From Candidatus Aminicenantes bacterium (lineage in GTDB: Bacteria; Acidobacteriota; Aminicenantia; Aminicenantales; Aminicenantaceae): 64,000 bases of DNA. The first letter of the stretch is position 1, and every line of letters starts with the position of its first letter. The notes under the pieces were generated by a model, which was given only the letters and a program-made list of their open reading frames with translations, was not told the origin of the DNA and made no database searches. Below are positions 7,538 to 55,590 of the stretch, piece by piece. The position numbers and the translations under genes were made by a program. The stretch covers positions 21,287-85,286 of the forward strand of contig JAFGMO010000012.1 in NCBI GenBank assembly GCA_016927475.1, in the 5' to 3' direction.

Positions 7538-7782
7538 TTTTGCTGTTCACGAGCCAAGCTTGCTGTTGGTCAAATTTTTAAATAACACAGTTGAACCTGT
7601 GTTATTCACGAGTCGAGGTTGCCGAAGATGGGAGGCGTCGATGGACGAAGCTGTGCTTGTTCACCGCGAGTCCATCGCAACGAAGCAGATGCGAAAAGAT
7701 CGGCTCGCCTGGAAGGTAAATTTGGTCGGTTTTAAAATAAAAAAAATAATAAGTTCCCGGCCAAATTTATGAATAACACGGG
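7538..7782 (-). mobile_element. MITE-like repeat, copy B (minus orientation) plus an adjacent TIR fragment and TIR-TIR junction hairpin
   Basis: 7596-7782 aligns almost base-for-base in reverse complement with the 3' half of copy A (40400-40527), including terminal CCTGTGTTATTCACGAG. 7538-7562 is a second TIR fragment. 7581-7606 is AAATAACACAG-ttgaa-CCTGTGTTATT. The element abuts the stop of the 7783 gene. Confidence 0.7.
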
Positions 7783-8928
7783 TCAGATGATCTCAAGCAT
7801 ATCCCTCCCCGGCAGTTTCGGAAAAGGGGCGTGGGGTTCCTGCTGGTACCAGATAGCTACGGAAGACAGATCGTCTTGAAGAGGTAAATATCTTCCGCCC
7901 GACCTCCAGCCCAAAGCCTGAATTGTTACTTTTAGTTCTTTTTCGAAACGGACCGGGTCCATAATATGCCACCGGTAAAGCCCGAAGCGTTGTTGGGACT
8001 GCCACATTCCGTCAGGTTTGATAACCTGTGGCATGCCGGCATAGGGAGTGGTAAATTCACTATATTCCCCGCCCGAGGTAAAACAGTATGAGCCGCAGAA
8101 ATAGTCTTCTGTTCCGGTTCCGCAGATGGTCGGAAAATCTGTATCACCGTCGATGAAAAATTTGATCTCACCTTCTCCCCACCAGCCGGTATTATTTGAG
8201 CCCCAGCACATATAGGTGCCGACGTAATGGCCCCAACCTCGAATGCCGTCGACGATTGTATACACCGACTTATAGGGAAGCGGATTTGCCCGGCGGAATT
8301 GGGCATGGAAATATGCGGCATCCTTTGGAATTTCGGTCAGGGTGTAATTGATTTGGTAATAGAGGGTCAAATTTTTGTCATTCAGGTTTTCCATGGTGAT
8401 CCGGCAGGATTTGCGAAAGGGCATGACCCAGTAGCAGTTGAGGCCGCTTCCGGGATTAACGCAGACAGCCAGGGATGAGACCTGAGCGTATTTGCCCCAG
8501 CCGCAGGCGAAAAAGTCTCCGACGGGAACTTCGACCGAAGGCTCCTCTTCACCGTCCCAGTAGAAGCGGAGGATGGAAAAACGCCAGTTTCCGGAGGGAG
8601 TCATCCAGATCTGTTGGATAGCTCCCGGTCCTTCAATCTCGGCCAGAGTGGTCGTCTTTCCGGATTCGATGTGGATATAAGGGGATACCTTCCAGCCTTG
8701 GCCCAAGTCACGGGCGGCTTCTTGGGCGAGTCCGTCGACGGACTTACCGCCTTTTCCTTTTTTACCTGAAAAGTTTTCCGGGCTGATCGAGCGGGATTTG
8801 GCGTGTGAGAGCTTGTAAAGATTTCCCAGGTTGAGATACAAACCGTTGAATGGTTCTTCCTCTTCCGCGAAAATAAAAAGAGACACTAAACATAAAGAAA
8901 GAAAAATCGCCGTTCGCTTTTTTTTCAT
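7783..8928 (-). CDS. secreted DUF2961 / GH172-like protein
   Basis: Signal peptide MKKKRTAIFLSLCLVSLFIFA and the DUF2961 hallmark TGTEDYFCGS with surrounding conserved Trp/Gly blocks. RBS AAGGAG. Confidence 0.75.
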   Translation of the reverse strand: MKKKRTAIFLSLCLVSLFIFAEEEEPFNGLYLNLGNLYKLSHAKSRSISPENFSGKKGKGGKSVDGLAQEAARDLGQGWKVSPYIHIESGKTTTLAEIEGPGAIQQIWMTPSGNWRFSILRFYWDGEEEPSVEVPVGDFFACGWGKYAQVSSLAVCVNPGSGLNCYWVMPFRKSCRITMENLNDKNLTLYYQINYTLTEIPKDAAYFHAQFRRANPLPYKSVYTIVDGIRGWGHYVGTYMCWGSNNTGWWGEGEIKFFIDGDTDFPTICGTGTEDYFCGSYCFTSGGEYSEFTTPYAGMPQVIKPDGMWQSQQRFGLYRWHIMDPVRFEKELKVTIQALGWRSGGRYLPLQDDLSSVAIWYQQEPHAPFPKLPGRDMLEII

Positions 8929-14984: not shown

Positions 14985-14995
14985 TAAAGGGTTCA

Positions 14996-15150
14996 ACCTG
15001 AATAAAGCAGCTGCCCTTGCATTATTCATAAATTTGGCCGACAGCAACTCATAATTTCAATATTGAGTAGCATTTAATGCTGGTTTTCGGCAAAAATGAT
15101 ACTGGAACATTTTCCATGACCATTTTAAGAAGCTGCTGACATTGCTTTTA
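14996..15150 (+). mobile_element. MITE-like repeat, copy D (5' half, degenerate 3' end) preceded by an inverted TIR
   Basis: CCTTGCATTATTCATAAATTTGGCCGACAGC...GGAACATTTTCCATGACCATTTT matches the 5' half of copy A. It is preceded by CCTGAATAAAGCAG, a TIR in opposite orientation, forming a hairpin junction. Confidence 0.6.
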
Positions 15151-23689: not shown

Positions 23690-23747
23690 AGGGGTCGAAC
23701 AAAAACGTGATCCGTTCACGCTGATTTAAGATAAAAAGGGCTTTTAA

Positions 23748-23954
23748 CCTGCTTTATTCACGAGCCAACAAAGCAGATGCGGTAAGATCGGCGGATTAGG
23801 TTGGGTCGGCGCCTGAAAGGTAAATTTGGCCGGCATTTTCTTAAAAACGGTCGTGGAAAATGTTTCATTATCACTTTTACCGAAAATCACTCTCAAATGA
23901 CACAAAATATTGAAATTATCTGTTGGTGTCGGCCAAACTTATGAATAATGCAGG
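23748..23954 (-). mobile_element. MITE-like repeat, copy C (complete, about 207 bp)
   Basis: Runs from CCTGCTTTATTCACGAGCC to GGCCAAACTTATGAATAATGCAGG. TIRs and internal segments align with copies A and B. Confidence 0.7.
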
Positions 23955-23974
23955 TTAAATAGAAGGCGAAAAAA

Positions 23975-38905: not shown

Positions 38906-40273
38906 ATGGAAAATCAAATTTCTATAAAAAGAGAAGGTTTTGGTACAAAATTCGGAGCTATCGCTGCGGCTGCAGGAGCAGCTGTCGGAATCGGCAACAT
39001 CTGGAATTTCCCTTATCTTACAGGTAAAAATGGTGGTGGAGCTTTCATTGTCATCTACATTTTTTGTGTTCTTTTAATCGGTATTCCGATTATGATTTCC
39101 GAATTTATTTTAGGAAAAAGAGGACAAAAGAACATGGTAGGCTCTTTTAAGACTCTTGCTCCAAACTCAAAATGGCACTGGGTAGGATGGTTCTGTGTTG
39201 TTGCGTGTTTCCTCATACTCGGATTCTACGGTGTTGTTGCAGGATGGAGTTTTGCTCATGTTGCAGAGGCTATTGGCGGCATTTTTAACGGCCTTAATGC
39301 TGAACAGATAGGGGATAAATTTACTAGACACATAACACATCCTATATGGCCTATCTTCTGGCATTTTATTTTTATGGGTGCAACTGCAGGTATCGTTATA
39401 TGCGGCATCAGAAAAGGGATCGAAAAATTCTCAAAGATTTTTATGCCGGTTCTGTTTGTTCTTCTTATGATTCTTGCTATAAGATCGATCACTCTTCAAG
39501 GGGCTTCCGATGGTCTTAAATTTATTTTTAAACCCGATTTTTCTCAGGTTAGTGCTAAAACCATACTTATTGCCTTAGGAGCTGCATTCTTCTCAATTGG
39601 TGTGGGTAACGGTGTTATGGTGACCTTCGGTTCATACCTGAGAAGAGATACAGAACTTGGAAACACAGCGTTTCAGGTTTCCATGACTGATACTATCATT
39701 GCAATTATTGCAGGTGTCGCAATTTTCCCCGCAGTTTTCGCTCTTGGATTTGAACCAACTCAGAGCTCTGGTCTTGCTTTTATTACTGTTCCAGCTGTAT
39801 TTCAGAGTATTCCAGGCGGAGCAGTAGCGCACTACTTTTTTACACTTGTCTTCTTTATCCTGCTTTCAATTGCGGCACTCACATCTTCCGTTGCAACCCT
39901 CGAGGTAGTGGTAGCTTATTTTACAGAAGAGTTTAAGGTAAAGAGAATAGGTGCTGCTTTAGTGATTTCCGGAATAATGTTTCTTATTGGTATCCCCTGT
40001 GCCCTCTCAATAGGTGCTGTACAAATTAACCTTTTTGGAGTTGGATTCTTCGATTTTATCATTTTCCTTGTTGAAGCTATCTTCCTGCCGGTTGGCGGAC
40101 TTATGATAGTTATCTTTGTAGGCTGGCGTCTCAAAAAGAAAGATATTGAAGAAACATTAAGTGCCAATGGAGTAAAAGCTTGGTATCAGGATAGTTGCCT
40201 TTTATTAATAAGATTTATTGTCCCAGTAGTTATTGTTGCAGTTCTTGTTAAAACTTTTATTGATGCTTTCTAA
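38906..40273 (+). CDS. neurotransmitter:sodium symporter (NSS/SNF, SLC6-like) family transporter
   Basis: N-terminal NSS signature (GFGTKFGAIAAAAGAAVGIGNIWNFPYLTGKNGGGAF) and 11-12 TM segments. Confidence 0.85.
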   Translation: MENQISIKREGFGTKFGAIAAAAGAAVGIGNIWNFPYLTGKNGGGAFIVIYIFCVLLIGIPIMISEFILGKRGQKNMVGSFKTLAPNSKWHWVGWFCVVACFLILGFYGVVAGWSFAHVAEAIGGIFNGLNAEQIGDKFTRHITHPIWPIFWHFIFMGATAGIVICGIRKGIEKFSKIFMPVLFVLLMILAIRSITLQGASDGLKFIFKPDFSQVSAKTILIALGAAFFSIGVGNGVMVTFGSYLRRDTELGNTAFQVSMTDTIIAIIAGVAIFPAVFALGFEPTQSSGLAFITVPAVFQSIPGGAVAHYFFTLVFFILLSIAALTSSVATLEVVVAYFTEEFKVKRIGAALVISGIMFLIGIPCALSIGAVQINLFGVGFFDFIIFLVEAIFLPVGGLMIVIFVGWRLKKKDIEETLSANGVKAWYQDSCLLLIRFIVPVVIVAVLVKTFIDAF

Positions 40274-40274
40274 C

Positions 40275-40527
40275 CTGCATTATTCATAAATTTGGCCGAC
40301 ACCGACAGATAATTCCAATATTATGTGTCATTTAATGATGATCTTAGGTAAAATTGATAATGAAACATTTTCCATGACCATTTTCAAGAAAATGTCGGCC
40401 ATATTTACCCTACGGGCGAGCCGCTCTTACCACATCTGCTTCGTTTCGATGGACTCGCGGTGCCAAGCACAACTTCATCCATCGACGCCTTGCATCTGCG
40501 GCAAGCTTGGCTCGTGAATAATACAGG
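40275..40527 (+). mobile_element. MITE-like repeat, copy A (complete, 253 bp)
   Basis: Starts CCTGCATTATTCATAAATTTGGCCGACA 1 nt after the NSS stop and ends CTCGTGAATAATACAGG. TIR consensus CCTG(C/T)ATTATTCA. Confidence 0.75.
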
Positions 40528-40727
40528 CTAAATATTTAGTCTGAAAATAAATAAATCTGAATAGAAAGAATTTTGTAAGAAAATGAAGGGGGTCAAATCT
40601 TTGCTCGACTCATTTACCCATATAATAATGGGAAATGATTTGCAATACGGCAGAAGCAAAATCCAGGAATATGAACATATACCATCAATATAAAAAAATA
40701 GATGAGTCAAGCAAAAACTTGGCCCCT

Positions 40728-44106: not shown

Positions 44107-44184
44107 CACACATAACGTCAAAGCTCACCGGCGGCAATGGAGCGCAGCGGAATTGCCTGTCCGAGTTGATGCGTTTGTTATGTG
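44107..44184 (-). other. attC-like recombination site (attC-L2), minus-strand polarity
   Basis: Minus strand reads ACATAAC-AAACGCATCAACTC...GGCAAT/ATTGCC centre...GAGCTTTGACGTTATGT. R'' ACATAAC pairs with R' GTTATGT, with imperfect L''/L' bulges. It begins 2 nt after the TPR gene stop. Confidence 0.55.
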
Positions 44185-44185
44185 T

Positions 44186-44881
44186 TCACTTCTTTTCCAT
44201 TATTTTCTTTTTCAATTCTAATAAGTTGGCGTTATTTGGCTCCACTTCTAATCCTTCATTGATGAATTCCAAAGCCAAATCATAATTACCCTGCTCAAAA
44301 AATATTTGAGATAATCGCAAAGATTTGGCTATAGAATGCTTCTTAACATCTTCTGGGGAAACGCCACGTAAAGTTGGTTCATAAGTATCTATACTTTCCT
44401 GTGCCAATGATAGATATTTTTCAAATTTCGTCGGAGATGCAGAATACATGAGGTTATGTGTAGTGTTACCTATCATAAAATCAATAAATAATATTTTTGT
44501 GCCTTTGAAAGTAAATGTTCTCTTCACGGCTGGTTTGCCAGCAAACGCGATCTTTTCTATATTAGTATTGGTCCCGATCTTTTTTTCTATTCCTTTAATT
44601 TCTTCTAACATTTCTTCAAAGCTGTTGTAATCAAGTCCTTTTGCTAGGACTCTTAGTTCAACACCATCAGGGGCAATAAAGGCGACCTTTCCACGAGGGT
44701 CTTGCGGATATTGCTGTATCCGCCACCCATCTGGAGGAACAATTTTGAAATAACCATTAGGATCGGAATATCGACTTTTTGCGAGTGTAGCTGTTTTGCT
44801 CTGCGCATTAGCGCTTCCGATTAGCTGAAAAACAAAAAACAATGAAATAATTGTAACACTTGCGAACTTGAATTTTTTCAT
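44186..44881 (-). CDS. TPR-repeat lipoprotein/secreted protein (integron cassette L2)
   Basis: Signal peptide MKKFKFASVTIISLFFVFQLIGSANAQ and C-terminal TPR-like helices. ATG 44881 with AAGGAG lies directly after the R' box of attC-L1. Low GC (~40%). Confidence 0.55.
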   Translation of the reverse strand: MKKFKFASVTIISLFFVFQLIGSANAQSKTATLAKSRYSDPNGYFKIVPPDGWRIQQYPQDPRGKVAFIAPDGVELRVLAKGLDYNSFEEMLEEIKGIEKKIGTNTNIEKIAFAGKPAVKRTFTFKGTKILFIDFMIGNTTHNLMYSASPTKFEKYLSLAQESIDTYEPTLRGVSPEDVKKHSIAKSLRLSQIFFEQGNYDLALEFINEGLEVEPNNANLLELKKKIMEKK

Positions 44882-44895
44882 GTTTATCTCCTTTT

Positions 44896-44981
44896 CACAT
44901 AACACGGGCGTTGAGCTGCGAGGGCCGCGCCTACTCTGAGACGGGGCGCGGACCTCGTCTGCTCCAACGCCTTGTTAGCCG
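44896..44981 (-). other. attC-like recombination site (attC-L1), minus-strand polarity
   Basis: Minus strand reads GGCTAACAAGGCGTTGGAGC...CCGCGCC/GGCGCGG centre...GCTCAACGCCCGTGTTATGT. L'' GGCGTTGGAGC pairs with L' GCTCAACGCC leaving one extrahelical G. The 5' arm resembles the aadA attC (CTAACAA..CGTT..AAGC). R' is GTTATGT. Confidence 0.6.
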
Positions 44982-44990
44982 ACAGCGCAC

Positions 44991-45848
44991 CTACTCGAAG
45001 CCCTGAGGCTCGTACTGCGGGGTCCAGGGCGCAACGCCCTCAACCGCACGTAGAGTGACTCGAAACCGCTGCGGGTAACTGGGATCCCTGCGTGACTTCG
45101 GAATCTCGACGATCGCTACTCCGCGGGACAGCATCGTCTGAAACGTGTAGGCGAGGGTGTTTTCCACGAAGGCTAGCACGTGTCGGCACATGGCAGCCAC
45201 CCACTGGGACACCGGCACGCCATCAACAGGCGGCTCGATCATCGACACTCCCCCCTCAGGCGTAGGCGGGTACTTGACGTCCGGGAGGACCCAGCCCTCA
45301 TGCTCGAGAGCATTGCGACGATCAATGAGACCTTGGGACCAGTCTTGTCGGGCAAGCCGGAAGTACTCGACCAGAGGTTCGTGGCCGGCGGAAGCCAGTA
45401 CAGTCATGCGGCGCTCGAAGTTCGCATCATTAGCGAAGAAGCCCCCTATGTCCAAGCCGAGATGCGCCGTCACCTTTTGCAGCGACTTTGCAGCCCGGAC
45501 CGCGCTATTCAGGAAGCGAGATAGGAGGTCACGGAGGTCATGGTGAATAGCTTCGTGGATCTCGATAGCGTTTCGTTGGCGGCCTACGATCTCGCCTGAT
45601 AGCAGCTTCGCGCGGTGACCCTCTACAAGGGTGTGCAGGGTTTTTGCAGCCTTTCGCATCGCGAACATCTCGTTCAACACAGCCTCGTACAACTCGTCGA
45701 ATGCCAGGCGGCGTGCCTCGCGCTCTCGGTGGGAGATATCGAGAGCGTTGAGGTAATGATCGCGGAGTTCCATCATGCCGCTCATCAAGCGTGCGATGAA
45801 GGGTTTGGCAGTGCCCTCGTCAAGCGCCTTCTGGATCGTCCACTTCAT
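44991..45848 (-). CDS. hypothetical protein (integron cassette L1), high GC
   Basis: 285-aa ORF with no family recognised; there is an Rx5H stretch (RQRNAIEIHEAIHH) reminiscent of HEPN. ATG 45848 lies 5 nt from the GTTAGCC core that terminates the left 140-bp repeat. Confidence 0.4.
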   Translation of the reverse strand: MKWTIQKALDEGTAKPFIARLMSGMMELRDHYLNALDISHREREARRLAFDELYEAVLNEMFAMRKAAKTLHTLVEGHRAKLLSGEIVGRQRNAIEIHEAIHHDLRDLLSRFLNSAVRAAKSLQKVTAHLGLDIGGFFANDANFERRMTVLASAGHEPLVEYFRLARQDWSQGLIDRRNALEHEGWVLPDVKYPPTPEGGVSMIEPPVDGVPVSQWVAAMCRHVLAFVENTLAYTFQTMLSRGVAIVEIPKSRRDPSYPQRFRVTLRAVEGVAPWTPQYEPQGFE

Positions 45849-45855
45849 GCTCGGC

Positions 45856-45996
45856 TAACTATTAATATACAGCATGCTGTATTTGACACAAATTTCCCTC
45901 AATTAACGTCGTATATTATGTGATATCATCGGATATCCCCGCAAAATTGCTGTCTTAGTTTATAATTATCCTGCTTATATTGCAAGTCGTATATTC
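45856..45996. repeat. left copy of a 140-bp inverted repeat pair (candidate attI/Pc module)
   Basis: Reverse-complement of 46643-46782 with about 8 mismatches. Its outer end is GTTA (GTTAGCC on the minus strand). It contains the 18-bp palindrome TATACAGCATGCTGTATA and an outward TATATT. Confidence 0.85.
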
Positions 45997-46028
45997 GATG
46001 GACCTGTTATCCTCTTGAGAGGAATCAA

Positions 46029-46513
46029 TTGAACAATCAACACAAAAATCTTGAGGAGTTTGAAGATTTTATCAAGCGTTTCCATCTTGTTCCCCTAGAG
46101 AAAGCCCGATTTTATGTTTATTGGGTAGAACGATTTATGAAATATTATAAATATAGAACTTCCAAAACGGTGGGAAATATCCTAATGCCAACAAGGAATG
46201 GCCCTGGCAGTGGGTATTTCCCTCGAAAAGCCTTGTGGTGCATCCTAAGAGCGGAAAGCTCTTGCGTCATCATATCCAACCAAGCTTGCTTCAGAGAAAG
46301 ATCAAAAAAGCTGTAAGAAATTCTGATATTTCCAAACCGGCAAGCTGTCATACGCTTCGGCACAGTTTCGCCACTCATCTGCTGGAGGCAGGACATAATA
46401 TCCGAACGATTCAGGAACTCATGGGACATAAAAACGTCAATACCACGATGATATACACTCATGTTGTTCGTAAGAGCTATTCGGATGTTTCCAGCCCTTT
46501 GGACAAACTATAG
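46029..46513 (+). pseudogene. intI: integron integrase (IntI-type tyrosine recombinase) pseudogene with internal deletion
   Basis: The N-terminal segment (EKARFYVYWVERFMKYY) matches the IntI SAM-like N-domain (EQAYVHWVRAFIRFH). A C-terminal segment in another frame ([17 protein letters not shown]...[72 protein letters not shown]...VSSPLDKL) aligns with IntI1 residues ~230-320, including the catalytic Tyr. About 160 central residues, including the catalytic R/K box and the IntI-specific insert, are missing. Confidence 0.7.
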
Positions 46514-46642
46514 AGAAATGATGGCGTGCAGCTAGAGAAAAAAGGCTTCTATCAATTTCTCATCCTAGGATTTTTGTGACAAATTGAAAAGAGTATTTTT
46601 TAGAAATTATTTAGAAAACCTTGAAGGATATTAAAGGAGTTG

Positions 46643-46782
46643 GATATACGACTTGCAATATAAGCAGGATAATTATAAGCTAAGACTGCAATTTTGTGGG
46701 GATATTCGATGATATCACATAATATACGACGTTAATCGAGGGAAATTTGTGTCAAATACGGCATGCTGTATATTAATAGTTA
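46643..46782. repeat. right copy of the 140-bp inverted repeat pair (candidate duplicated attI/Pc module)
   Basis: See the left copy. The outer end is GTTATGT at 46779-46785, where homology with the left copy stops. Confidence 0.85.
46746..46774 (+). promoter_or_regulatory. outward-facing promoter-like element in the right repeat (TTTGTG-N17-TATATT); the mirror copy on the minus strand at 45864-45892 faces cassette L1
   Basis: TATATT at 46769-74 is 34 nt upstream of the DUF4145 ATG, with RBS AGGAATGGAGG. The mirror TATATT at 45869-64 lies 15 nt upstream of ATG 45848. Confidence 0.35.
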
Positions 46783-46808
46783 TGTGAGAGAGGAATGGAG
46801 GCGATACT

Positions 46809-47411
46809 ATGGATATCAATGTGAAGCATTCATGGAAGGCCATCGTAGGCCTATCCTCGCGGGGGTATACGTGCGGATACTGCAATCGCCCCCTCGCGTC
46901 CGAGAAGGGATGGCATTCGAACAATTCCGGTTTCATCTATGTCTGCCATCACTGTACGCGCCCCACCTTCTTCGACTTTCACGGTGAGCAGATCCCGGGT
47001 GTTATGCACGGGAATCCGGTCGGTGACATAACCGACAAGTCAGTTTCCGCCCTTTACGATGAAGCTCGCAGCACAACTCAGGCGAACGCCTACACTGCCA
47101 CGGTTCTCTGCTGCCGGAAGCTCTTGATGCACGTTGCCGTTTCAAAGGGTGCCAAGCTTGGAGAGAGCTTCGCGTTCTACGTCACCTACCTTGCAGAGAA
47201 AAACTTCGTTCCTCCCGACGCAATGGGGTGGATCGATCATATCCGCAAGAAGGGGAACGAAGCGAATCATGAGATCACCATCATGAAAAAGGACGATGCA
47301 GAAGAACTGCTGTCCTTTACGGAGATGCTGCTGAGGATTATCTACGAGTTCCCTGCGATGGTCGCGAAGAAGTACCAGCAAGGACAACAAGGGAAGGGGA
47401 AGACCACATAA
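46809..47411 (+). CDS. zinc-ribbon + DUF4145 domain protein (integron cassette R1)
   Basis: N-terminal CxxC...CxxC (CGYCNRP...CHHCTRP). The C-terminal region matches DUF4145 features (VLCCRKLLMHVA...HIRKKGNEANHE). Confidence 0.55.
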   Translation: MDINVKHSWKAIVGLSSRGYTCGYCNRPLASEKGWHSNNSGFIYVCHHCTRPTFFDFHGEQIPGVMHGNPVGDITDKSVSALYDEARSTTQANAYTATVLCCRKLLMHVAVSKGAKLGESFAFYVTYLAEKNFVPPDAMGWIDHIRKKGNEANHEITIMKKDDAEELLSFTEMLLRIIYEFPAMVAKKYQQGQQGKGKTT

Positions 47412-47427
47412 CAATCGAATCGAACGC

Positions 47428-47496
47428 GACTTAGTGTTAACCGCGCCGCTTCGCTCTGCGGCTAACACTAAGCGGTTCATTCGAGGCGTTATGTCC
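47428..47496 (+). other. candidate short or degenerate attC-like site (attC-R1)
   Basis: Imperfect palindrome CTTAGTGTTAACC-GCGCCGCTTCGCTCTGCG-GCTAACACTAAG (11/12 stem), whose centre GCCGCTTCGC..GCGGCT(T)AAC resembles the aadA attC centre. It is followed by GTTATGT (47489-95), the same R' as attC-L1 and L2. The full fold is unclear. Confidence 0.3.
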
Positions 47497-47531
47497 ATAA
47501 TTGTCATGAATGAATCGAATTATGAGGTTTG

Positions 47532-50500
47532 ATGGAGCAAAAGCGCAAAATAGATAAAGTCAGGGCGTCACGGGACGGCCATGAGTTTCATGAGGCCTGG
47601 ACGGCACGTAAGGCGACTCAGTTGCTATGGCCCGATGCCGAGTTGACTGCTATCGCCGTTGAAGGGCTTTCACCTTCTGATCAGGCTGGGGCGCCCGCGG
47701 CTACGATCGAAGTCGCTGACTTGACGTTCTATTATAAAGGTCCCCCGAATTTCAAGGATTCCGCCCGAACAACAATTGCCCAATTCAAATACTCCATTGC
47801 TGATCATAACAAGGACTTCCGTACCTCTCACGCAAAGAAGACAGTAAAAAAGTTTGGCGTGACCTATCGCTCATATAAACGAAAGTACGGTGCCAAAGCG
47901 GTTGATAATAAACTCGAATTTCAGCTCGTCACGAACCAGCCAATCAGCGAATCATTGCTTCAGGCCATTGAGGCAACGGCAACGGGATCGAGGATTAGCG
48001 GTGATGTTAAGGCGCAGGCAGAGCAGTTAAAGACGGCTTCCGGCTTGTCGGGAAAACCACTGGCTGCATTTGCGAGAAAGATGAAAATTATTGGCCGCTC
48101 TGGGAGCTTGCCGCAAACAAAGGGTGAGCTTGCCAGCATGCTCGTCGACTGGTCTGCCACGAGTGATCCGATTGCTTCCGCCCGGCTCGGGAAGCTTAGA
48201 GAACTTGTACGTGACAAGGCTGGTTATGCCGGTACTAACCGAAATCTGATCAGACGCACTGACGTGCTGGCCGCTCTTAAGATCGGTGACCCGAAAGACT
48301 TACTTCCCTGTGAAGCGGCTCTCGTCGATGTCGGCAAGGTACTGGAGCGGGAGCAGCTCCGCGAGGTCATGAACCGTATCGGAAGTACGTCAACGCCGCT
48401 TCTTATTCATGCGACGGGTGGCGTGGGCAAGACAGTCTTTATGGATTCGCTCGCCTCGAAGATCGCCTCAGACCACGAGATTGTTTTCTTCGATTGTTTT
48501 GGAGGCGGTGCTTACCGCTCTCCAGAAGACGCGCGACACTTACCCAAGAAGGGGCTCATTCATATTGCGAATACACTGGCATTTCGCGGCCTCTGCGATC
48601 CGATGCTCCCGGACAGTCCTGATGTGCACACTTTACTCAGCACGTTCCGCCGCCGCCTTACGCAGTGCCTGAACACCATCTCACGCATGATGCCAGGACG
48701 CAAGCTGGCGATTTTTATTGATGCCATCGACAATGCAGCCTTTGCTGCTGGCCAGGCAAGCGAAGACTGTTTTCCCATTAAGCTGCTGGAGACCCTCGAT
48801 ACGGAACCGATTGATGGCGTAAACCTTATCGTGTCCTGCCGTACAGAACGCAAGCCGAAAACCTATGCCAAGCTCGATGAATTCGAACTGTACCCTTTTA
48901 CCAAGGATGAAACAGCCACGTTTTTGCACGCGCGACTGAAGAGCGTCACAACCATAGAAATAAACGTTGCGCAAGCCCGGTCAGGCGGCAATCCGCGTGT
49001 GCTGGATTACCTGGTCAAGGCAGGTCGCGGCCTTCTTGATCCATCCGAGATCAACAAAGACATCGAGCTGGATGATCTGATTCAACAAAGAATCACGGAT
49101 GCGCTCTCTTTGGCCACAAAGCAGGGTTATAAGGAGAAGGACCTCAGTGCCTTTCTTGCAGGGCTCGCGGTGCTTCCTCCGCCGGTGCCTAAAGATGAGT
49201 ATGCCGCCGCTCATGGTATAGAGCTCGCCGCCATTGAGAGCTTTGCTTCGGACCTTAGCCCTCTACTAGAGCGCACCAATCACGGGCTCATGTTCCGTGA
49301 TGAGCCAACGGAAACACTGATCCACGAGCAATACGCGACATCACGTGATGCGCTTGAGCGTGTCGCATCCAATCTCCTTGCTCGCCAGGATGCGTCGGTA
49401 TATGCAGCCCGTGCGCTTCCGCGTCTGCTACACGAACTCGATGATAATGAGCGGCTGTTCGCACTTGCTTTCGATGATCGTATTCCTGCCTCAATTACCA
49501 GCACAGTTGGCAAGCGCAATATTCAATATGCCCGGCTTAAGGCAGCCACTTTGCACGCGGCTCTCAAGGTTGACTACAACAGCCTTGTACGGCTTCTCGT
49601 CGAGCTATCAACCTTAGCTGAGGTTGATCAGCGTGGAGCCAATTATCTACTGAAACATCCTGATCTTGTTGTTGCTGCCGAAGATGTTGACGCCCGGCGG
49701 CGACTATTTGAAATAAGAACGGCTTGGCCAGGAACACGACATGCGCGTCTTGCTATCGTCAATGTTTTATCGGGTGATCCGACAGAGGCGACCCGTCATG
49801 CACATGCAAATGAAGAGTGGATAAAGCATTACCGGCGCACAGAGCGAAACGATTTTGAGCGTGAACCAATTCCTGATCAGGCCGACATCGCTGCCACAAG
49901 TTTCTTTCTGATCTCGGAAGATCGCACAGAAAATGCGGCCGGCTACCTCACAGGTTGGCGGGACTGGTATGCCTTTGAAGTTTCTCAGCTCGTCCTCGGA
50001 TATGCGCATCTTGCGAGCTTGTTAGGAACTCAGCCCGCTCAACGGACTGAACAATTCATTGATGCGCTCTCCAGTATCGGTCCGATTGCGGCTGCTTTGT
50101 CTTTTCAAGAGCTGGCGAACTCTAAATGCAAGCCGCTTTGCGTCAAACTCGCTGCTCTCTGCAAGAAGGAGACAAAGCTTTACTTGCCGCAAAAAAGTTA
50201 CTCGCGCCCAAAAAACTACGAACTCGAAGACGGTCTAAGGAAGTCGGCCGCCATCGCGCTCTCATTGGGCCTCATCACTGAGGCACAATCTATTTCACTA
50301 AGAGCACGGCATGATCGGCCCGGTATCTGGGCATACCGTGACGCGTTCAACCACACAGAAGTATTCGCTAATATATTCCGAGTTGCCCTGCTTTCTGCTG
50401 CAAAGAAGCGCGCTATTCACGAGAAGGAACTGCTGCCAAAAGAGCTCGTATCGGTCTGCGCGCGCATTCCAAAGACCATTTCTGGAAAAACCTTCCGAGA

Positions 50501-53500
50501 AAAGGCCAAGGAAGAGCTCTCTAAGCTTCCGCGCAAGCCGCGTTACGAAGATGGGCAAACCAAGAACGTGGCGGCTAATGCCATTAGCTATGATGAGCAG
50601 CAGACGGCAGAGCGCTTTCTTGGCATCCGCCTGGAGCCGCTGCTTACTCTCACTGAGGCACTGTCGGCTGCACTCGCAGCATCGGCGCGGACCATTGATA
50701 AGCGCTTTGTCGAGCTTGTGGAAGCCTGGGAGCAGGCGCGAAAAAATCGCGATCACTACCGGGTTGAGGATATCGATCCCTTCTTTCAATTCTTGGGTCT
50801 CGACACTGTTCTCTTCATATTGTGGTCCCGTAGCGAGCTGAAGCCACAATCCATCGAGCGCATGCTGACAGCCGTACATGCCCACATGAGCAATGCCAGT
50901 GATTTGATTCGTATTGTCGCGATTCTATCGCAGCGAACCCCGCTGCACTCGATTGCGGGCGAGCAGGCCGTAAAGGCGCGCGAGATGATTAAGAAAGAGG
51001 ATGAAGTTACCTATCGGGCGTCTCTCTATGGTGCTCTTGGCCGGGCAATCCTTCCTGCCAGCCTTGATGAGGCTGCCTCCTATTTCCGGGATGGTCTGGA
51101 GCAGATGGATGCCATTGGTTCGGGTGATTACCAGTTCACGAATGAACTGCTCTTGTTCGCATCGGAGATGAAAGGTGACGAACTGGAAGAACGTGACTTT
51201 CACACGCTGAGCAATATCTGCGAACTCAATATGGGGGACGAGCCCGAGAAATTTTTCTGGGGTGCGTACGGTCGCGGCATGGCAAAGGCAGCCGGGATGC
51301 GTGGCCTATCCAAGCTCAGTCGCTGGGATGACCGCAACAGGATAGCTCTGGACAACACACTTCTCACCTATCTTACGGGGCTGCTCGAAGCGGGAAAGAT
51401 CGATCCAAAGGGCGCGCTTTGTCTAAACCGCCTCGCCAATCCGGTTGAATATTTCTATGCCGGGACGAAGGAGTTTGCCAAAGCGTTGCGCGCCCAGGCA
51501 GGGCCGGATGCTGAAGTGATTACAGAGCTGATAACACAGTTCGAGGATGACAATCCGACGATAGCGAGTGACGAGACTGTCGAGACACTTTATGCGCTGG
51601 CTGACGAAGCGCTGGGTGCATCGCATGATATAACGAAGCACCTCAAAGCCGCGCGGGACAGATACGAGACCGCAAGGCAAGGACGCAATACTGCGTATGG
51701 TAGTAGCAGCGACTTCGATCCGAAGATGCATAGAGAAGCTGCCAAACGTGACAATGCAAACCGGGAGGCACTCGCACGTATAGCTGAAGCGACGGACCCG
51801 ACCGACGAGGCATCGCTTGTAAAGGCCATCGACGAATTCAATGCACTTGGGAACATGTATGACCTAAAAGGTGGCTTCTTTTCCTCGCTGCGAGCCAAAG
51901 TGCCCTTTGCTGCGCGCGGCCAGTATGTGCGCAATGTTGCCAGTCTGGAGCATCTGTTCTTCTATTGGAAATTCGCAGAACTGAAAGATGCAAAGGAAGC
52001 CTGGGGCGAATCATCCGTAGCGCTTGCTGGTGTTTATAGGAGCCTGGCACAGCCGCTAATTCTTGCCCATGCCGATGATTTGGTCAATGACGGTCGGTTC
52101 TCGGGTTCGAGCATCAAGGAAATATCTGAGTTTACGGGTGTGTCTATGGCCGAACTCGTTCTTGAGGTGATAAAGGTCTTTTCACGTCCTGATAGCACGG
52201 CCGGTGGTTCGGTATGGCTTGCGCTTGCCAATTTCATATGTCCAGCAGCGGATGAAGGGCAGGGGCAACTTGCCCTGAAGCGCCTACTGTCTGGCGACTC
52301 GGCACGGATTGCCGACAACGTAACAGACGGTCCATGGAAAGCAGGCTGCTACCCCGCGGATGTCTTCGCCGAAATTGCTGCTGGGCTAATATGGCGTGTC
52401 CTCGGTTCGCCCCATGCGACTGACAGATGGCGCGCGGCTCACTGCATACGCCGATTTGCAAAGTTCGGGCGCTGGGACATTGTTGACACGGTTGTTGCCG
52501 CCTTTGATACGAAGACTGCTGAACCGTTTCAGGCACCAGAGCTTGTGTTCTATTACCTGCATGCACGGTTATGGCTCCTGATAACCCTGGCGCGGGCCGC
52601 GATCGATCATCCCGATCAGGTGGCGCGTTACAAGGATCTACTCTTGGCTGTCATCATGGAAAAAGATGAGCCGCATGTGCTTAAGCGCCACTTTGCCGCC
52701 AAAGCGCTTCTTGCCTGTATAGAACGCAGCAAACTGGTGCTTGACCCAGCCACGCTCAAGATTGTGCGTAATGCCGACAATTCCCCGAATCCGCGTTTAC
52801 GAAAGAAGATCCGCAACGGCGGCGGCTTCTATCAGGGCCGTCCGAAATCAGTATCCAAGCCTTCCTTTCGTTTTCATCTGGAGTATGACTTTAATAGGCA
52901 TGACGTTGATAACCTCGGCCGTGTCTTCGGCAAGGGCTGCTGGGAAGTTGATGACATGATGTCAAGCATCGTACAAAAGATTGATCCGTCAATGACGCAC
53001 ATGTATGAGGATGGTGACCGCGAGTACCGCGGGCAAAATTCTCATGGAATAACGACTCGCTTTCACGGCTATGGGCAACAGCTCGGCTGGCATGCACTAT
53101 TCATTGCTGCAGGCAAGCTGCTTGCCGCCAATCCTGTAACCAACGACTGGTGGTACGAGGACGACCCGTGGGGAGAGTGGCTTGGCCGCTACGTGCTTAC
53201 GCGAAAGGATGGATTGTGGCTATCCGATGGAACAGACAGGACTCCAGATGACGCATCTGTGAGGCTGCTTGAAACAAAGAAGAAGGGGCTTACGATAACC
53301 GGCGATCAGAAGAAGATTATGGGGCTTGCCGGCATAGATATTGAGAAAGGCATTGGTGAAGAACTGATTGTTCAGGGCAGATGGTATTCATCCGATGGTG
53401 TTGAAATCGGATTATCCTCTGCGCTTGTTCCACCCAAAAAGGCCGAGCAGTTTGCAAGAAAGCTCATTCGCGAAAAGCCGATACTGGCGTGGGTGCCTGC

Positions 53501-54005
53501 TTTCGAGGACGGCGAAGACGATGAAGAATATCTTCATAGTGATAAGAAGGGGTACTCACCTTGGATTGTCTGTCCATCCGGAGAAACACGTTTGGATGAA
53601 CATGATCCATATGGCGTTTCGGTTGCCAATCTTCGGCCGCGCCTTGCGCAAGATTATTCAGAGTTCTGTAAGCTGAAACAGCAAGATGAGTTCGGACGTT
53701 TCTGGAATAACAATCGTGGGACGCTTTCACTTCTAGCCCAAGCCTGGGGGCGCGATGAAACCAATCGAGAAGACGGCCCTCATCCGGGACTGCGGCTTCT
53801 CTGCAAGTCAAGTGTACTTAAGAATTTATTAATGAAGTATGACAGGGAACTGCTATTGCTCTTCAAACTTCAGCGTTATGAGAAAGAAAGTTATCGAAGC
53901 AGCGGACATTTTTTGCATTCTATCGGTGTAGTGAGGATTGATAAGTTGCTCAGTTTGGAGTACGTTAAGGGTCGCGTAAACTACTTACACAAGTCGGAGT
54001 GGTAG
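47532..54005 (+). CDS. giant STAND/NACHT-like P-loop NTPase (2157 aa): N-terminal unknown domain + NTPase + about 1500-aa helical repeat region; candidate defence protein (integron cassette R2)
   Basis: Walker A LLIHATGGVGKTVF (nt ~48409-48450), Walker B LAIFIDAIDNA (nt ~48707-48739), sensor-like LIVSCRTE and GxP-like ARSGGNPRVLDYL. The C-terminus is long and alpha-helical. GC ~57%. ATG 47532 has GAGG upstream. Confidence 0.6.
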   Translation: MEQKRKIDKVRASRDGHEFHEAWTARKATQLLWPDAELTAIAVEGLSPSDQAGAPAATIEVADLTFYYKGPPNFKDSARTTIAQFKYSIADHNKDFRTSHAKKTVKKFGVTYRSYKRKYGAKAVDNKLEFQLVTNQPISESLLQAIEATATGSRISGDVKAQAEQLKTASGLSGKPLAAFARKMKIIGRSGSLPQTKGELASMLVDWSATSDPIASARLGKLRELVRDKAGYAGTNRNLIRRTDVLAALKIGDPKDLLPCEAALVDVGKVLEREQLREVMNRIGSTSTPLLIHATGGVGKTVFMDSLASKIASDHEIVFFDCFGGGAYRSPEDARHLPKKGLIHIANTLAFRGLCDPMLPDSPDVHTLLSTFRRRLTQCLNTISRMMPGRKLAIFIDAIDNAAFAAGQASEDCFPIKLLETLDTEPIDGVNLIVSCRTERKPKTYAKLDEFELYPFTKDETATFLHARLKSVTTIEINVAQARSGGNPRVLDYLVKAGRGLLDPSEINKDIELDDLIQQRITDALSLATKQGYKEKDLSAFLAGLAVLPPPVPKDEYAAAHGIELAAIESFASDLSPLLERTNHGLMFRDEPTETLIHEQYATSRDALERVASNLLARQDASVYAARALPRLLHELDDNERLFALAFDDRIPASITSTVGKRNIQYARLKAATLHAALKVDYNSLVRLLVELSTLAEVDQRGANYLLKHPDLVVAAEDVDARRRLFEIRTAWPGTRHARLAIVNVLSGDPTEATRHAHANEEWIKHYRRTERNDFEREPIPDQADIAATSFFLISEDRTENAAGYLTGWRDWYAFEVSQLVLGYAHLASLLGTQPAQRTEQFIDALSSIGPIAAALSFQELANSKCKPLCVKLAALCKKETKLYLPQKSYSRPKNYELEDGLRKSAAIALSLGLITEAQSISLRARHDRPGIWAYRDAFNHTEVFANIFRVALLSAAKKRAIHEKELLPKELVSVCARIPKTISGKTFREKAKEELSKLPRKPRYEDGQTKNVAANAISYDEQQTAERFLGIRLEPLLTLTEALSAALAASARTIDKRFVELVEAWEQARKNRDHYRVEDIDPFFQFLGLDTVLFILWSRSELKPQSIERMLTAVHAHMSNASDLIRIVAILSQRTPLHSIAGEQAVKAREMIKKEDEVTYRASLYGALGRAILPASLDEAASYFRDGLEQMDAIGSGDYQFTNELLLFASEMKGDELEERDFHTLSNICELNMGDEPEKFFWGAYGRGMAKAAGMRGLSKLSRWDDRNRIALDNTLLTYLTGLLEAGKIDPKGALCLNRLANPVEYFYAGTKEFAKALRAQAGPDAEVITELITQFEDDNPTIASDETVETLYALADEALGASHDITKHLKAARDRYETARQGRNTAYGSSSDFDPKMHREAAKRDNANREALARIAEATDPTDEASLVKAIDEFNALGNMYDLKGGFFSSLRAKVPFAARGQYVRNVASLEHLFFYWKFAELKDAKEAWGESSVALAGVYRSLAQPLILAHADDLVNDGRFSGSSIKEISEFTGVSMAELVLEVIKVFSRPDSTAGGSVWLALANFICPAADEGQGQLALKRLLSGDSARIADNVTDGPWKAGCYPADVFAEIAAGLIWRVLGSPHATDRWRAAHCIRRFAKFGRWDIVDTVVAAFDTKTAEPFQAPELVFYYLHARLWLLITLARAAIDHPDQVARYKDLLLAVIMEKDEPHVLKRHFAAKALLACIERSKLVLDPATLKIVRNADNSPNPRLRKKIRNGGGFYQGRPKSVSKPSFRFHLEYDFNRHDVDNLGRVFGKGCWEVDDMMSSIVQKIDPSMTHMYEDGDREYRGQNSHGITTRFHGYGQQLGWHALFIAAGKLLAANPVTNDWWYEDDPWGEWLGRYVLTRKDGLWLSDGTDRTPDDASVRLLETKKKGLTITGDQKKIMGLAGIDIEKGIGEELIVQGRWYSSDGVEIGLSSALVPPKKAEQFARKLIREKPILAWVPAFEDGEDDEEYLHSDKKGYSPWIVCPSGETRLDEHDPYGVSVANLRPRLAQDYSEFCKLKQQDEFGRFWNNNRGTLSLLAQAWGRDETNREDGPHPGLRLLCKSSVLKNLLMKYDRELLLLFKLQRYEKESYRSSGHFLHSIGVVRIDKLLSLEYVKGRVNYLHKSEW

Positions 54006-54089
54006 GCATCTAAAGTCCACATCTGACCGATAAACTCGCGGAACGAAACGGGAAATTGTTGAAAATCCCAAGCACACGATGCTTGATTA

Positions 54090-54150
54090 GAACATAACCA
54101 ACATTTTGGAGCCGACCGAAAAACCTGGCGGCTCAAAATGAACGTTAGAT
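54090..54150 (+). other. attC-like recombination site (attC-R2), about 60 bp
   Basis: ACATAAC-CAACATTTTGGAGCC-GACCGAAAAACCTGGC-GGCTCAAAATGAAC-GTTAGAT. L'' has an extra G relative to L' (extrahelical), and R' GTTAGAT is identical to the aadA1 R'. It is followed by AAGGAG and ATG 54166. Confidence 0.6.
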
Positions 54151-54165
54151 GAAAGGAGATTTGTC

Positions 54166-54801
54166 ATGAAAAAGGCTTATCTATTATTGGTTCTATCCAG
54201 CAAGAAAGCTATTCTTTACTTTTTCGCTCTCTCCACTATTTCCTTAATAATCAATCCGCTCTATTCCTTGTCAGCCGAAGGTCCTATGGCAGATATTTTA
54301 GATATAGACGGTGCGTCCATATCGGCGGAATTTATCCAGGCTAATTGGGTGGCACCAGGCGACTGGAGGCGTGGTCTCATGCCAGCAGAGGCCCCTTCTA
54401 AATTAACCTCATATTTTGAGATAAAAATAACGGTCAAAGAGGGCAGAGTTATAACCTATGAAACAGTCAATATCCCTTTTAATGATATTAGATCCATTGA
54501 GGTTGATTGGTACAGAATTGACAAAAAAAGAAATACGATAACATTCAATATGCGCAATGGAAAAGCGATCATCTATGTTAAGGAATATGACAATGCAAGC
54601 CATGGAACGTACATAAAGAAAGACCCAAATGGGAATATTTTGTCCAAAGTACCTGCTCCAGATTCACGTCTTACAATCGGAGAATACCAGGGAGTTCCAT
54701 TTGAGTTTGTTGGATTTAAAGGCAGGGCAATAATGAAATCGGGAAAAATCGGTGAATTCTCTATTCCTTACCGGGACGTTAAAAAGTTAGTATTTAAATA
54801 G
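54166..54801 (+). CDS. secreted hypothetical protein (integron cassette R3), low GC
   Basis: Signal peptide; no family recognised. It lies between attC-R2 and attC-R3. Confidence 0.4.
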   Translation: MKKAYLLLVLSSKKAILYFFALSTISLIINPLYSLSAEGPMADILDIDGASISAEFIQANWVAPGDWRRGLMPAEAPSKLTSYFEIKITVKEGRVITYETVNIPFNDIRSIEVDWYRIDKKRNTITFNMRNGKAIIYVKEYDNASHGTYIKKDPNGNILSKVPAPDSRLTIGEYQGVPFEFVGFKGRAIMKSGKIGEFSIPYRDVKKLVFK

Positions 54802-54804
54802 TAT

Positions 54805-54870
54805 TCATCTAACAACGGCATTAAGGCCGACGGTAAAAAAGCCGCCGCGCCTTATGCCGCAGCGTTATGC
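54805..54870 (+). other. attC-like recombination site (attC-R3)
   Basis: ATCTAACAACGGCATTAAGGCCGAC...GCCTTATGCCGCAGCGTTATGC. R'' ATCTAAC is a perfect RYYYAAC and the 5' arm is close to the aadA attC (GTCTAACAATTCGTTCAAGCCGAC). L'' carries an extra A. R' GTTATGC overlaps the ParE stop on the opposite strand. Confidence 0.6.
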
Positions 54871-55161
54871 GGAATCAGACGGCTCAACAATCTCCTGTGC
54901 TCCGTGCCAGACAGCGACAATCCAAATCGTCTTCTTCTCAACGCGATAAAAGAAACGATATGGATTGATCATAATTTCGCGATGCGCCAATTCCGGGAAC
55001 TCAGGAATCACTCGACCAGACTCCGGAAATCTTTCTAGACGTCGGAGAACCCGTTCGGACCTCTCACGAAAACGCTGTGCTGCGGAAGGCTTATCTCTAC
55101 GGATGTATACAAGTGCCTCAAGAAATTGCAGACGAGCCGAGGGCGTGAACCGAACCCTCAC
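54865..55161 (-). CDS. parE: type II toxin, RelE/ParE family (cassette R4)
   Basis: RelE/ParE fold signature (PSARLQFLEALVYIRRD...RFFYRVEKKTIWIVAVWHGAQ). Confidence 0.85.
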   Translation of the reverse strand: MRVRFTPSARLQFLEALVYIRRDKPSAAQRFRERSERVLRRLERFPESGRVIPEFPELAHREIMINPYRFFYRVEKKTIWIVAVWHGAQEIVEPSDSA

Positions 55162-55439
55162 GCCTCACCCTCCCGAAGAAGGGCATCCGCCTCTCGAAGC
55201 ACGCTATCTAGCGAATATCCTTTGCCCTTTGCGATCTCCCTTTCCCCCAACGCGAGCAGGCGCAGTAACTCCCGCTCATGCTGTGAACGTTCGTAGGCTT
55301 CGAGGTTCAACAGAACAGCAGTCGCCCGCCCTCTCTGGGTTATAACAAGGGGTTCCTCGGATTTTTGAAGCTCTTTCAGTACAGACGCTGCGTCCTGCCG
55401 CAGGTCTGTAATAGGAATTATTTTTGGAACTTTCGCCAT
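55158..55439 (-). CDS. phd: type II antitoxin, Phd/YefM family
   Basis: Phd/YefM N-terminal motif (IPITDLRQDAASVLKELQKSEEPLVITQRGRATAVLL). 4-nt overlap with parE. Confidence 0.85.
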   Translation of the reverse strand: MAKVPKIIPITDLRQDAASVLKELQKSEEPLVITQRGRATAVLLNLEAYERSQHERELLRLLALGEREIAKGKGYSLDSVLREADALLREGEA

Positions 55440-55513
55440 ATGACACCTCCAATGGTACGCTTAATAATACCGTATGGCGTATCATAAATCAACGTATTAT
55501 CTCCGCATAACGC

Positions 55514-55590
55514 GTGCATAACCGGTAAAAACGTTTGGCGCGGCCTTTGTACCAAAGGGCGTGACGAGCGGTTTTGTCCGTGGTTATGCG
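55514..55590 (+). other. attC-like recombination site (attC-R4), probable distal end of the right cassette array
   Basis: GCATAAC-CGGTAAAAACGTTTGG-CGCGGCCTTTGTACCAAAGGGCG-...CGGTTTTGTCCGTG-GTTATGC. R''/R' pair as TAAC/GTTA, with a central CCTTTG/CAAAGG stem and bulged arms. Confidence 0.45.

Follow-up and report, generated by a model that had tools for sequence, protein, structure and literature searches.

Integrons are usually modelled as an integrase gene (intI), a single attI site, a single cassette promoter (Pc) and one array of cassettes (IntegronFinder paper, PMC4889954), and integrons with attI downstream of intI and with cassettes co-directional with intI have been described in Spirochaetota and, with a putative attI, in archaea (PMC9668308). 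We analyzed a 64,000-nt stretch from a Candidatus Aminicenantes bacterium (contig JAFGMO010000012.1, positions 21,287 to 85,286), referred to below as the window; coordinates without a locus label are positions within this 64-kb stretch. Our reading, to which we assign a probability of about 0.82 together with the mechanism proposed below, is that 44110-55589 holds a small chromosomal integron of an Aminicenantes type, whose intI is flanked by two mirrored attI regions of ~140 nt. The duplicated attI module is well supported, and two divergent arrays are present, a left one of 2 minus-strand cassettes and a right one of 4 plus-strand cassettes, the attC polarity matching each arm. Outside this interval, the window carries large chromosomal genes of ordinary kinds. 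The departure from known integrons appears to be architectural, namely two mirrored attI regions and two divergent arrays for one intI, found here in a decayed copy.

With the classical integrons (class 1 and the sedentary chromosomal integrons of Vibrio) this locus shares an integrase of the TIGR02249 family, insertion at G|TT, R''/R' attC hairpins with a GCNGAC bulge, open reading frames (ORFs) that are co-oriented with attC and have their stop codons at R'', and a toxin-antitoxin cassette. Taken by itself, the left arm has the textbook layout, its cassettes lying upstream of intI and diverging from it. The locus differs in having a second, inverted attI region downstream of intI and hence two arrays per integrase, in an attI region of ~140 nt that is conserved clade-wide, and in an integrase family with a 118-aa N-terminal extension. 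The window intI also reads as a deletion pseudogene, whereas all other defining features of an integron are present, with Pc as a candidate. The right arm alone has the same arrangement as the reverse-orientation integrons of PMC9668308, compared by layout and not by attI sequence, but in our locus a mirror copy of the downstream attI is also present upstream of intI.

The central unit consists of the following features.

45856-45994, minus strand: left arm (attI-L region), cassettes exit on the minus strand; arm alignment, nhmmer arm profile 143 bits, outer edge a cassette junction.
46029-46172, plus strand: N-terminal intI remnant, 48 codons, TTG start at 46029; matches residues 1-48 of the intact 433-aa IntI of locus L036.
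46169-46513, plus strand: C-terminal intI remnant, 114 codons, in a different frame; Pfam Phage_integrase E 1.8e-22, TIGR02249 positions 209-315, 165 bits.
46644-46782, plus strand: right arm (attI-R region), cassettes exit on the plus strand; arm alignment, nhmmer arm profile 138 bits, outer edge a cassette junction.

The arms, each 139 nt long, align with 6 mismatches and no indels (96% identical mirror images), are spaced 649 nt apart by an AT-rich region, and constitute the longest inverted repeat of the whole window. An initial annotation of this DNA had described 140-bp inverted repeats at 45856-46782, which are indeed present, and it was equally right about the outward TATATT in each arm (45869-45864 on the minus strand, 15 nt before the ATG at 45848, and 46769-46774, 34 nt before the ATG at 46809) and about an inward TTGACA (45883-45888) with a 23-nt spacer to TATATT (45912-45917). 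Homology between the arms stops at TAAC/GTTA. The left crossover G|TT appears on the plus strand as AAC at 45857-45859, and the right one lies at 46779|46780, so that by sequence there is on both sides a site adjoining intI to which cassettes are joined at G|TT. On its inner side, the right arm extends into sequence that retains homology to the intI 5' untranslated region (5'UTR) and ribosome-binding region.

The cassettes and their attC sites are listed below from left to right.

44110-44183, minus strand: attC of left cassette 2, distal end of the left array; R'' ACATAAC, R' GTTATGT; covariance model 32.3 bits, minus strand only; hairpin with a bulged GAC motif in its 5' half; member of the training set.
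44186-44881, minus strand: left cassette 2 ORF, TPR-repeat protein, ATG at 44881 (open frame extends to a GTG at 44905); its stop codon adjoins R'' of its own attC.
44897-44980, minus strand: attC of left cassette 1; R'' GGCTAAC, R' GTTATGT; 46.1 bits on the minus versus 20.1 on the plus strand; R'' pairs exactly with the GTTAGCC of the left attI junction.
44991-45848, minus strand: left cassette 1 ORF, 285 aa, no Pfam or PADLOC family; ATG 10 nt past the crossover G, with no Shine-Dalgarno sequence.
46809-47411, plus strand: right cassette 1 ORF, 200 aa, DUF4145 with a weak PD-T7-4 match (Pfam and PADLOC searches).
47406-47494, plus strand: attC of right cassette 1; R'' ACATAAC, R' GTTATGT; 35.8 bits, plus strand, outside the training set; R'' complements the attI-R junction GTTATGT.
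47529-54005, plus strand: right cassette 2 ORF, 2158 aa, Avs3a-like STAND NTPase with AAA_16 and NACHT; PADLOC PDLC02167 E 1.1e-202.
54092-54150, plus strand: attC of right cassette 2, ACATAAC ... GTTAGAT; covariance model 51.5 bits, plus strand.
54166-54801, plus strand: right cassette 3 ORF, 211 aa, no match in protein-family searches.
54807-54870, plus strand: attC of right cassette 3; ATCTAAC, complementary to the GTTAGAT before it, and R' GTTATGC; covariance model 30.1 bits, plus strand.
54865-55439, minus strand: right cassette 4, with genes for a ParE toxin (54865-55161; Pfam E 7.8e-16) and a Phd/YefM antitoxin (55158-55439; Pfam E 1.3e-18), both inverted within the cassette.
55516-55589, plus strand but strand ambiguous: attC of right cassette 4, distal end of the right array, GCATAAC ... 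GTTATGC; found by hairpin scan and fold; R'' complements the preceding GTTATGC.

Outward from each arm, each ORF ends in an imperfect hairpin bounded by RYYYAAC and GTTRRRY, giving six attC sites with R'', L'', L' and R' boxes in the window. All cassette bodies lie between exactly complementary 7-mers (GTTAGCC/GGCTAAC, GTTATGT/ACATAAC three times, GTTAGAT/ATCTAAC and GTTATGC/GCATAAC), for which the chance of matching at the four variable bases is 1/256. The first pair on each side starts at the outer end of the arm, and both arm junctions obey the complementarity rule, as do, without mismatch, the first cassettes on both sides of three other loci (L005, L016 and L036). Such complementarity is what the insertion of circular cassettes at G|TT leaves behind, and it puts the attI crossover at the outer edge of each arm; because each arm ends at a crossover that is followed by cassettes with attC oriented as that arm, the locus carries two divergent arrays. 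The earlier expectation of cassettes on both arms is thus borne out by the attC sites and junction 7-mers.

The attC sites were also searched for with a covariance model (R2) built from 15 sites with a hand-drawn 24-pair structure, a version based on the RNAalifold consensus (5 base pairs) having been discarded. It finds 5 sites in the window, all within 44110-54870 and none elsewhere, on the minus strand left of the arms and on the plus strand right of them, including the one outside the training set (47406-47494). When the sites are folded, a GCNGAC motif with a bulged base appears in the 5' half of all of them, read in the gene direction. The same 5'-half bulge asymmetry is found in canonical attC sites such as attCaadA7.

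The intI of the window is, judging from its sequence, a dead pseudogene with an internal deletion, its two frames being joined near 46170. The best comparison is the intact homologue at L036 7052-8353, which encodes 433 aa and scores 441 bits across the full TIGR02249 model (cutoff 265). The window gene shares the first 48 and last 114 codons with it, the N-terminus being near-identical, and is ~820 bp shorter; since its two ends match the intact gene and the modules measure 927 versus 1747 bp, these ~820 bp were lost from the window copy. The remnant matches the TIGR02249 "integron integrase" model, its 165 bits falling under the 265-bit cutoff because it is truncated. The C-terminal part keeps the HxxR, H and Y catalytic residues, and the first Arg and the Lys are lost, so that this is not an intact, catalytically complete integrase. 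The intact L036 protein has a 118-aa N-terminal extension before its TIGR02249 region; this extension of the clade corresponds to L036 7052-7405 (IntI residues 1-118) and to 46029-46172 in the window, and could bind the repeated motifs of the long attI arm. Pfam reports two stretches of a SAM-like N-terminal domain family in L036 IntI, the better one at residues 119-201.

L036 itself is contig JBHIFL010000094.1, binned in a Candidatus Heimdallarchaeota metagenome-assembled genome (MAG), and is the sole intact two-armed platform found. Its IntI shares ~77% identity with the Aminicenantes copies, and over the arms and the C-terminal part of intI the L036 module closely matches the window at the DNA level; either misbinning or a recent cross-domain transfer would account for the Heimdallarchaeota placement. 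A protein search with the intI remnant returned thousands of relatives, among them one 92-aa match with 99% identity in a Candidatus Aminicenantes MAG, and most of the close ones are truncated and lie on 1-2 kb contigs, about the inter-arm length. Short-read assemblers evidently break at the arm inverted repeats, which may explain why the two-armed layout went unnoticed. One independent assembly of the window locus (L161, Logan SRR13394437_373326) begins within the right arm.

Further loci were collected by protein search in species-representative genomes and by arm pattern in metagenomes. Among the fetched loci, which amount to 1.17 Mb, an nhmmer search with an arm profile yields 100 arms of full length, or 77 after redundant ones are removed. 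Two convergent arms around intI or its remnant are present in ~25 Aminicenantes-type loci from genomes and metagenomes, at inter-arm distances of 54-1454 nt, plus one locus with an inserted insertion sequence (IS), and the integrase is intact in just 1 of the ~25 platforms inspected (L036). At L143 1215-2715, a 420-aa ORF between the arms resembles, by appearance, an IS transposase, and would be another route of integrase loss. Across 18 two-armed loci the attC strand follows the arm: left of the unit 25 sites are on the minus and 3 on the plus strand (19 versus 2 without training sites), and right of it 33 are on the plus and 5 on the minus strand (27 versus 4). The exceptions sit far out, where the array of a neighboring platform converges (L084/L156, L092 and L078); in these loci, platforms lie a few kb apart and their arrays meet head-on. 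The 7-mer outside the arm differs among loci (RYYYAAC) while the arm is conserved.

How the second arm arose is suggested by one-armed relatives. More distant homologues (Thermodesulfobacteriota, Syntrophaceae; ~60% protein identity) lack the inverted repeat and carry attC only upstream of intI, on the minus strand, and a classical single-arm form of the close clade occurs beside ruvABC-queA (L003). From these we infer that the classical attI corresponds to the left arm, and that an inverted duplication specific to this clade produced the right arm. Arm identity within versus between loci is mixed, the window, L036 and L043 looking homogenized and others not, and no general claim of concerted evolution is therefore made.

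In the mechanism that we propose, IntI of a functional copy would insert circular cassettes by attI x attC recombination at either arm, and the element would thereby have two first positions. Each arm would provide an outward promoter, probably with a -35 of TTGTAT or TTGTGT, a 16-nt spacer and a -10 of TATATT, whose predicted start at the crossover would have an inserted cassette transcribed from its first base. A palindrome in the most conserved 36-nt block of attI would act as a protein-binding core element. The left arm would also provide the intI promoter and 5'UTR, and the right arm would be an inverted duplicate of this intI upstream region placed downstream of intI. Lastly, the long inverted repeat would probably promote the internal deletions that destroy intI in most copies, the window included.

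An arm-intI-arm unit of this kind invites comparison with mobile elements, and a locus with different flanks (L001) prompted us to consider an IS- or transposon-like unit with 140-nt terminal inverted repeats (TIRs), whose deleted copies would be non-autonomous and similar to miniature inverted-repeat transposable elements (MITEs). The unit does end in TIRs (the 139-nt arms), it is found in many different flanks, its series of internal deletions keeps both arms (54-1454 nt apart), and a single MAG can hold several platforms (L013, L016 and L040). Yet the flanks CTCGGC and TGTGAG are unlike, i.e., there is no target-site duplication around the unit, and the flanking 7-mers pair with the neighboring attC and not with each other. 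The attC polarity flips at the unit, as expected for two attI sites but not for an insertion into a one-way array, and varied flanks are expected in any case because cassettes turn over. The copies within one genome are also old: MAG MFD01647 bin15 has at least 3 platforms, the same three loci, with arms 83-89% identical, and the 11-17% divergence between them indicates no recent transposition. The IS/MITE-like explanation was dropped on the attC sites, the complementary 7-mers, the polarity flip and this divergence, and we regard it as very improbable.

A version of the same idea has the unit integrate and excise by recombination at the palindromic core of the arms, leaving "solo" sites behind. 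Three such sites (L036 4353-4396, L077 4474-4517 and L115 2550-2614) are each built from the outer ends of two arms, joined at or near the palindrome, and are located at cassette boundaries (for example GCCCAAC TATTAATATACAGCATATTGTATATTAATA GTTAGGC). They are probably the end-points of deletions between arms, and are also what would be expected of empty sites if the platform were mobile; those in L036 and L077 are fused at the palindrome itself, and the palindromic core makes the inverted copies direct repeats as well. That IntI would use this core (11-bp arms around AGCATGCT) as a double-stranded site of a self-mobilizing platform has, in our estimate, a very small chance of being right. If it were true, the platform would excise as a circle and re-insert in arrays at solo sites AAC TATTAATATAC AGCATGCT GTATATTAATA GTT, seeding new two-armed arrays and explaining the multiple platforms per genome. 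In the 1.17 Mb, however, a search for inner-inner junctions, which a circular form would have, gave none. L115 has collapsed asymmetrically and away from the palindrome, which together with the continuum of deletion sizes fits random decay, and the collapsed copies (L115, L154 and L082) are heterogeneous. Site-specific excision at the palindrome was rejected on these grounds; gradual deletion between long inverted repeats fits the observations better.

The inverted repeats around a tyrosine recombinase gene, with outward genes on both sides, also recall invertible segments of the hin/hix or fimS style, in which the arms would be the inversion sites of the intI segment and flipping would toggle the genes to the left and right; NCBIfam gives weak matches of the protein to tyrosine-type DNA invertases as well. 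However, both arms carry the identical outward sequence, so flipping would leave the read-out unchanged, and this symmetry led us to reject the inverton. In addition, each arm measures 140 nt and terminates at a cassette crossover, six assembled contigs of one locus (L007-L012) are all in one orientation, and the protein is a full-model integron integrase. We regard a switch of this kind as extremely unlikely. Taken with TIR transposons and their deletion derivatives, the Salmonella hin/hix segments share with our locus the inverted repeats around a recombinase gene and deleted copies that keep both repeats; here, in contrast, the ends are crossovers, no target duplication is present, attC polarity flips and the paralogous copies are old.

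A further possibility is that the two arms pair on single-stranded DNA into one giant attC, a hairpin with intI in its loop, so that the platform travels within a cassette. The unit edges, AAC on the left and GTT on the right, resemble R'' and R', and the solo sites fold as minimal, fully paired hairpins between R''-like and R'-like boxes at cassette boundaries. Extrahelical bases are needed in attC for strand choice. The window arms pair in perfect register and have none, and the outer 7-mers (GGCTAAC and GTTATGT) are complementary only over AAC/GTT. The arrays on the two sides have opposite polarity, and single arms serve as array starts on their own in L003, L040, L101 and L132. With no extrahelical bases, non-complementary outer 7-mers and single arms that function alone, we rejected the giant hairpin, whose chance of being correct is close to negligible.

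Returning to the duplicated attI module, each of its arms carries a palindrome at the following position.

45867-45882, strandless: perfect 16-bp palindrome ATACAGCATGCTGTAT in the left arm, 8-23 bp inside the crossover.
46756-46771, strandless: imperfect copy ATACGGCATGCTGTAT in the right arm, with a G at 46760.

The 18-bp perfect palindrome reported earlier for each copy holds as a perfect 16-mer in the left arm, which is flanked by T and T and does not reach 18 bp; the right arm has one substitution, the G at 46760, through which its symmetry is lost. The sequence TATACAGCATGCTGTATA that had been given for each copy is absent from both, the left reading TATACAGCATGCTGTATT and the right AATACGGCATGCTGTATA (46755-46772). 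Allowing up to 2 mismatches, the 14-nt core TACAGCATGCTGTA occurs in the window only at the two arm sites, a count for which 0.10 is expected by chance and which was reached in 0 of 100 shuffles. The consensus of the 77 non-redundant arms reads AACTATTAATATACAGCATGCTGTATTTGATACAAA followed by repeated motifs, which include two direct CGTATATT repeats (consensus positions 54-61 and 132-139) and two tandem AAWTATCC-N8-TTGCAR units. In this consensus the palindrome is perfect over 16 bp (chance ~0.2% for a 140-nt arm). Read outward, it fills the 16-nt spacer from TTGTAT/TTGTGT to TATATT, plus the upstream edge of the -10.

Each arm may plausibly drive outward transcription of its cassettes from a candidate promoter. 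The best outward candidate, TTGTGT-16-TATATT, scores 8/12 against the consensus, with its predicted start at the crossover; further Pc candidates read from the sequence are TTGTGG-18-CATAAT and TTGCAA-17-TAAGCT. A sigma-70 consensus scan of 45700-46950 gave 1 match, outside the arms, versus 3.1 expected from shuffles, and none within either arm, and a terminator scan of the same interval gave nothing in the arms. Of the earlier suggestion of a duplicated attI/Pc module, then, the mirrored attI copies stand, and the Pc part is only plausible, with a sub-consensus candidate.

The position of the palindrome bears on another proposal of the initial annotation, that it is a lineage-specific LexA box (SOS operator), which would control intI together with the cassette promoters on either side. 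In favor of this proposal, class 1 and Vibrio integrons are established cases of promoters under LexA control, and the 77-arm consensus has a perfect 16-bp palindrome, which lies where operators classically sit, covering the spacer and the -10 edge of the best outward candidate. The locus shares with the LexA-controlled integron promoters (class 1, Vibrio cholerae) a palindrome that overlaps a candidate promoter beside attI; it differs in a sequence that fits no described LexA motif and in poorly kept palindromy. ACAG-N4-CTGT matches none of the LexA motifs GAAC-N4-GTTC, CTGT-N8-ACAG, GTTC-N7-GTTC and TGTTC-N4-GAACA (PMC4951493), which may not be those of Aminicenantes itself. Among the 22 arms of a set retrieved independently of arm sequence, just 6 have a perfect palindrome. 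Pair 14-23 is C.T in 8 of these arms and pair 16-21 is A.C in 6, compensated to A.T in 2, so that the variation at both pairs is mostly uncompensated, and at locus L007 the inner half of the palindrome is wholly gone. In both the 77-arm and the 22-arm sets, the palindrome is no better conserved than the surrounding 36-nt block. Outside the arms and solo sites of the 1.17 Mb, the motif is no more frequent than background, and no repair gene, such as ruvABC in L003, has it upstream. A lack of the motif upstream of SOS genes, which had been offered as a refutation, would be uninformative, because recA is not LexA-regulated in Acidobacteria (PMC4951493). Furthermore, as the window integrase is a pseudogene, no intI is left here for LexA to regulate. 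The SOS/LexA reading is unsupported and we consider it improbable; the palindrome is probably not a LexA box and is most likely a protein-binding element of the attI/promoter core, for IntI or some dimeric repressor.

Several observations weigh against our reading of an integron with two mirrored attI regions. With the window intI dead, activity today would need IntI in trans, and no second, intact IntI gene was noticed in the window. All three promoter candidates fall below the scan threshold. The distal attC at 55516-55589 was missed by the covariance model at default filters. The arm pattern used for the metagenomes fixes part of the palindrome, which biases the conservation statistics, and the unbiased set comprises just 22 arms. 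Finally, within the limited scope of a full-text search of open-access literature, we found no natural integron with two attI sites, just laboratory attI x attI assays.

If the reading is correct, two mirrored attI regions would change the textbook picture of one attI, one Pc and one array, and would give the element two promoter-proximal slots. Folding of attC occurs on the lagging-strand template. Because the two arrays differ in strand with respect to replication, the prediction is one recombination-prone arm and one stable arm. In addition, intI would have a copy of its own promoter region in antisense orientation. The layout seems to carry a cost, since the long inverted repeat would favor deletion of intI, consistent with 1 intact platform among the ~25 inspected. 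Annotation pipelines that allow one array per integrase may assign just half of the cassettes of such an element.

The right array looks like a store of defense genes (the Avs3a-like protein and the DUF4145 protein with its weak PD-T7-4 match), and the Avs3-type cassette is one more case for seeing chromosomal integrons as reservoirs of anti-phage systems. Right cassette 2 spans 47489-54150 (6.66 kb) and is unusually large for a single integron cassette. The reversed ParE-Phd/YefM cassette at the end of this array is typical of the stabilizing toxin-antitoxin cassettes of chromosomal integrons. An Rfam search at gathering thresholds and a tRNA scan gave no matches in the window. Elsewhere in the window, and unrelated to the integron, a MITE-like intergenic repeat of ~270 bp with inverted ends (CCTGCATTATTCATAAATTTGGCCG ... 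CTCGTGAATAAnACAGG) lies between large genes in 4 full or partial copies (40260-40540, 23735-23970, 14985-15130 and 7580-7795).

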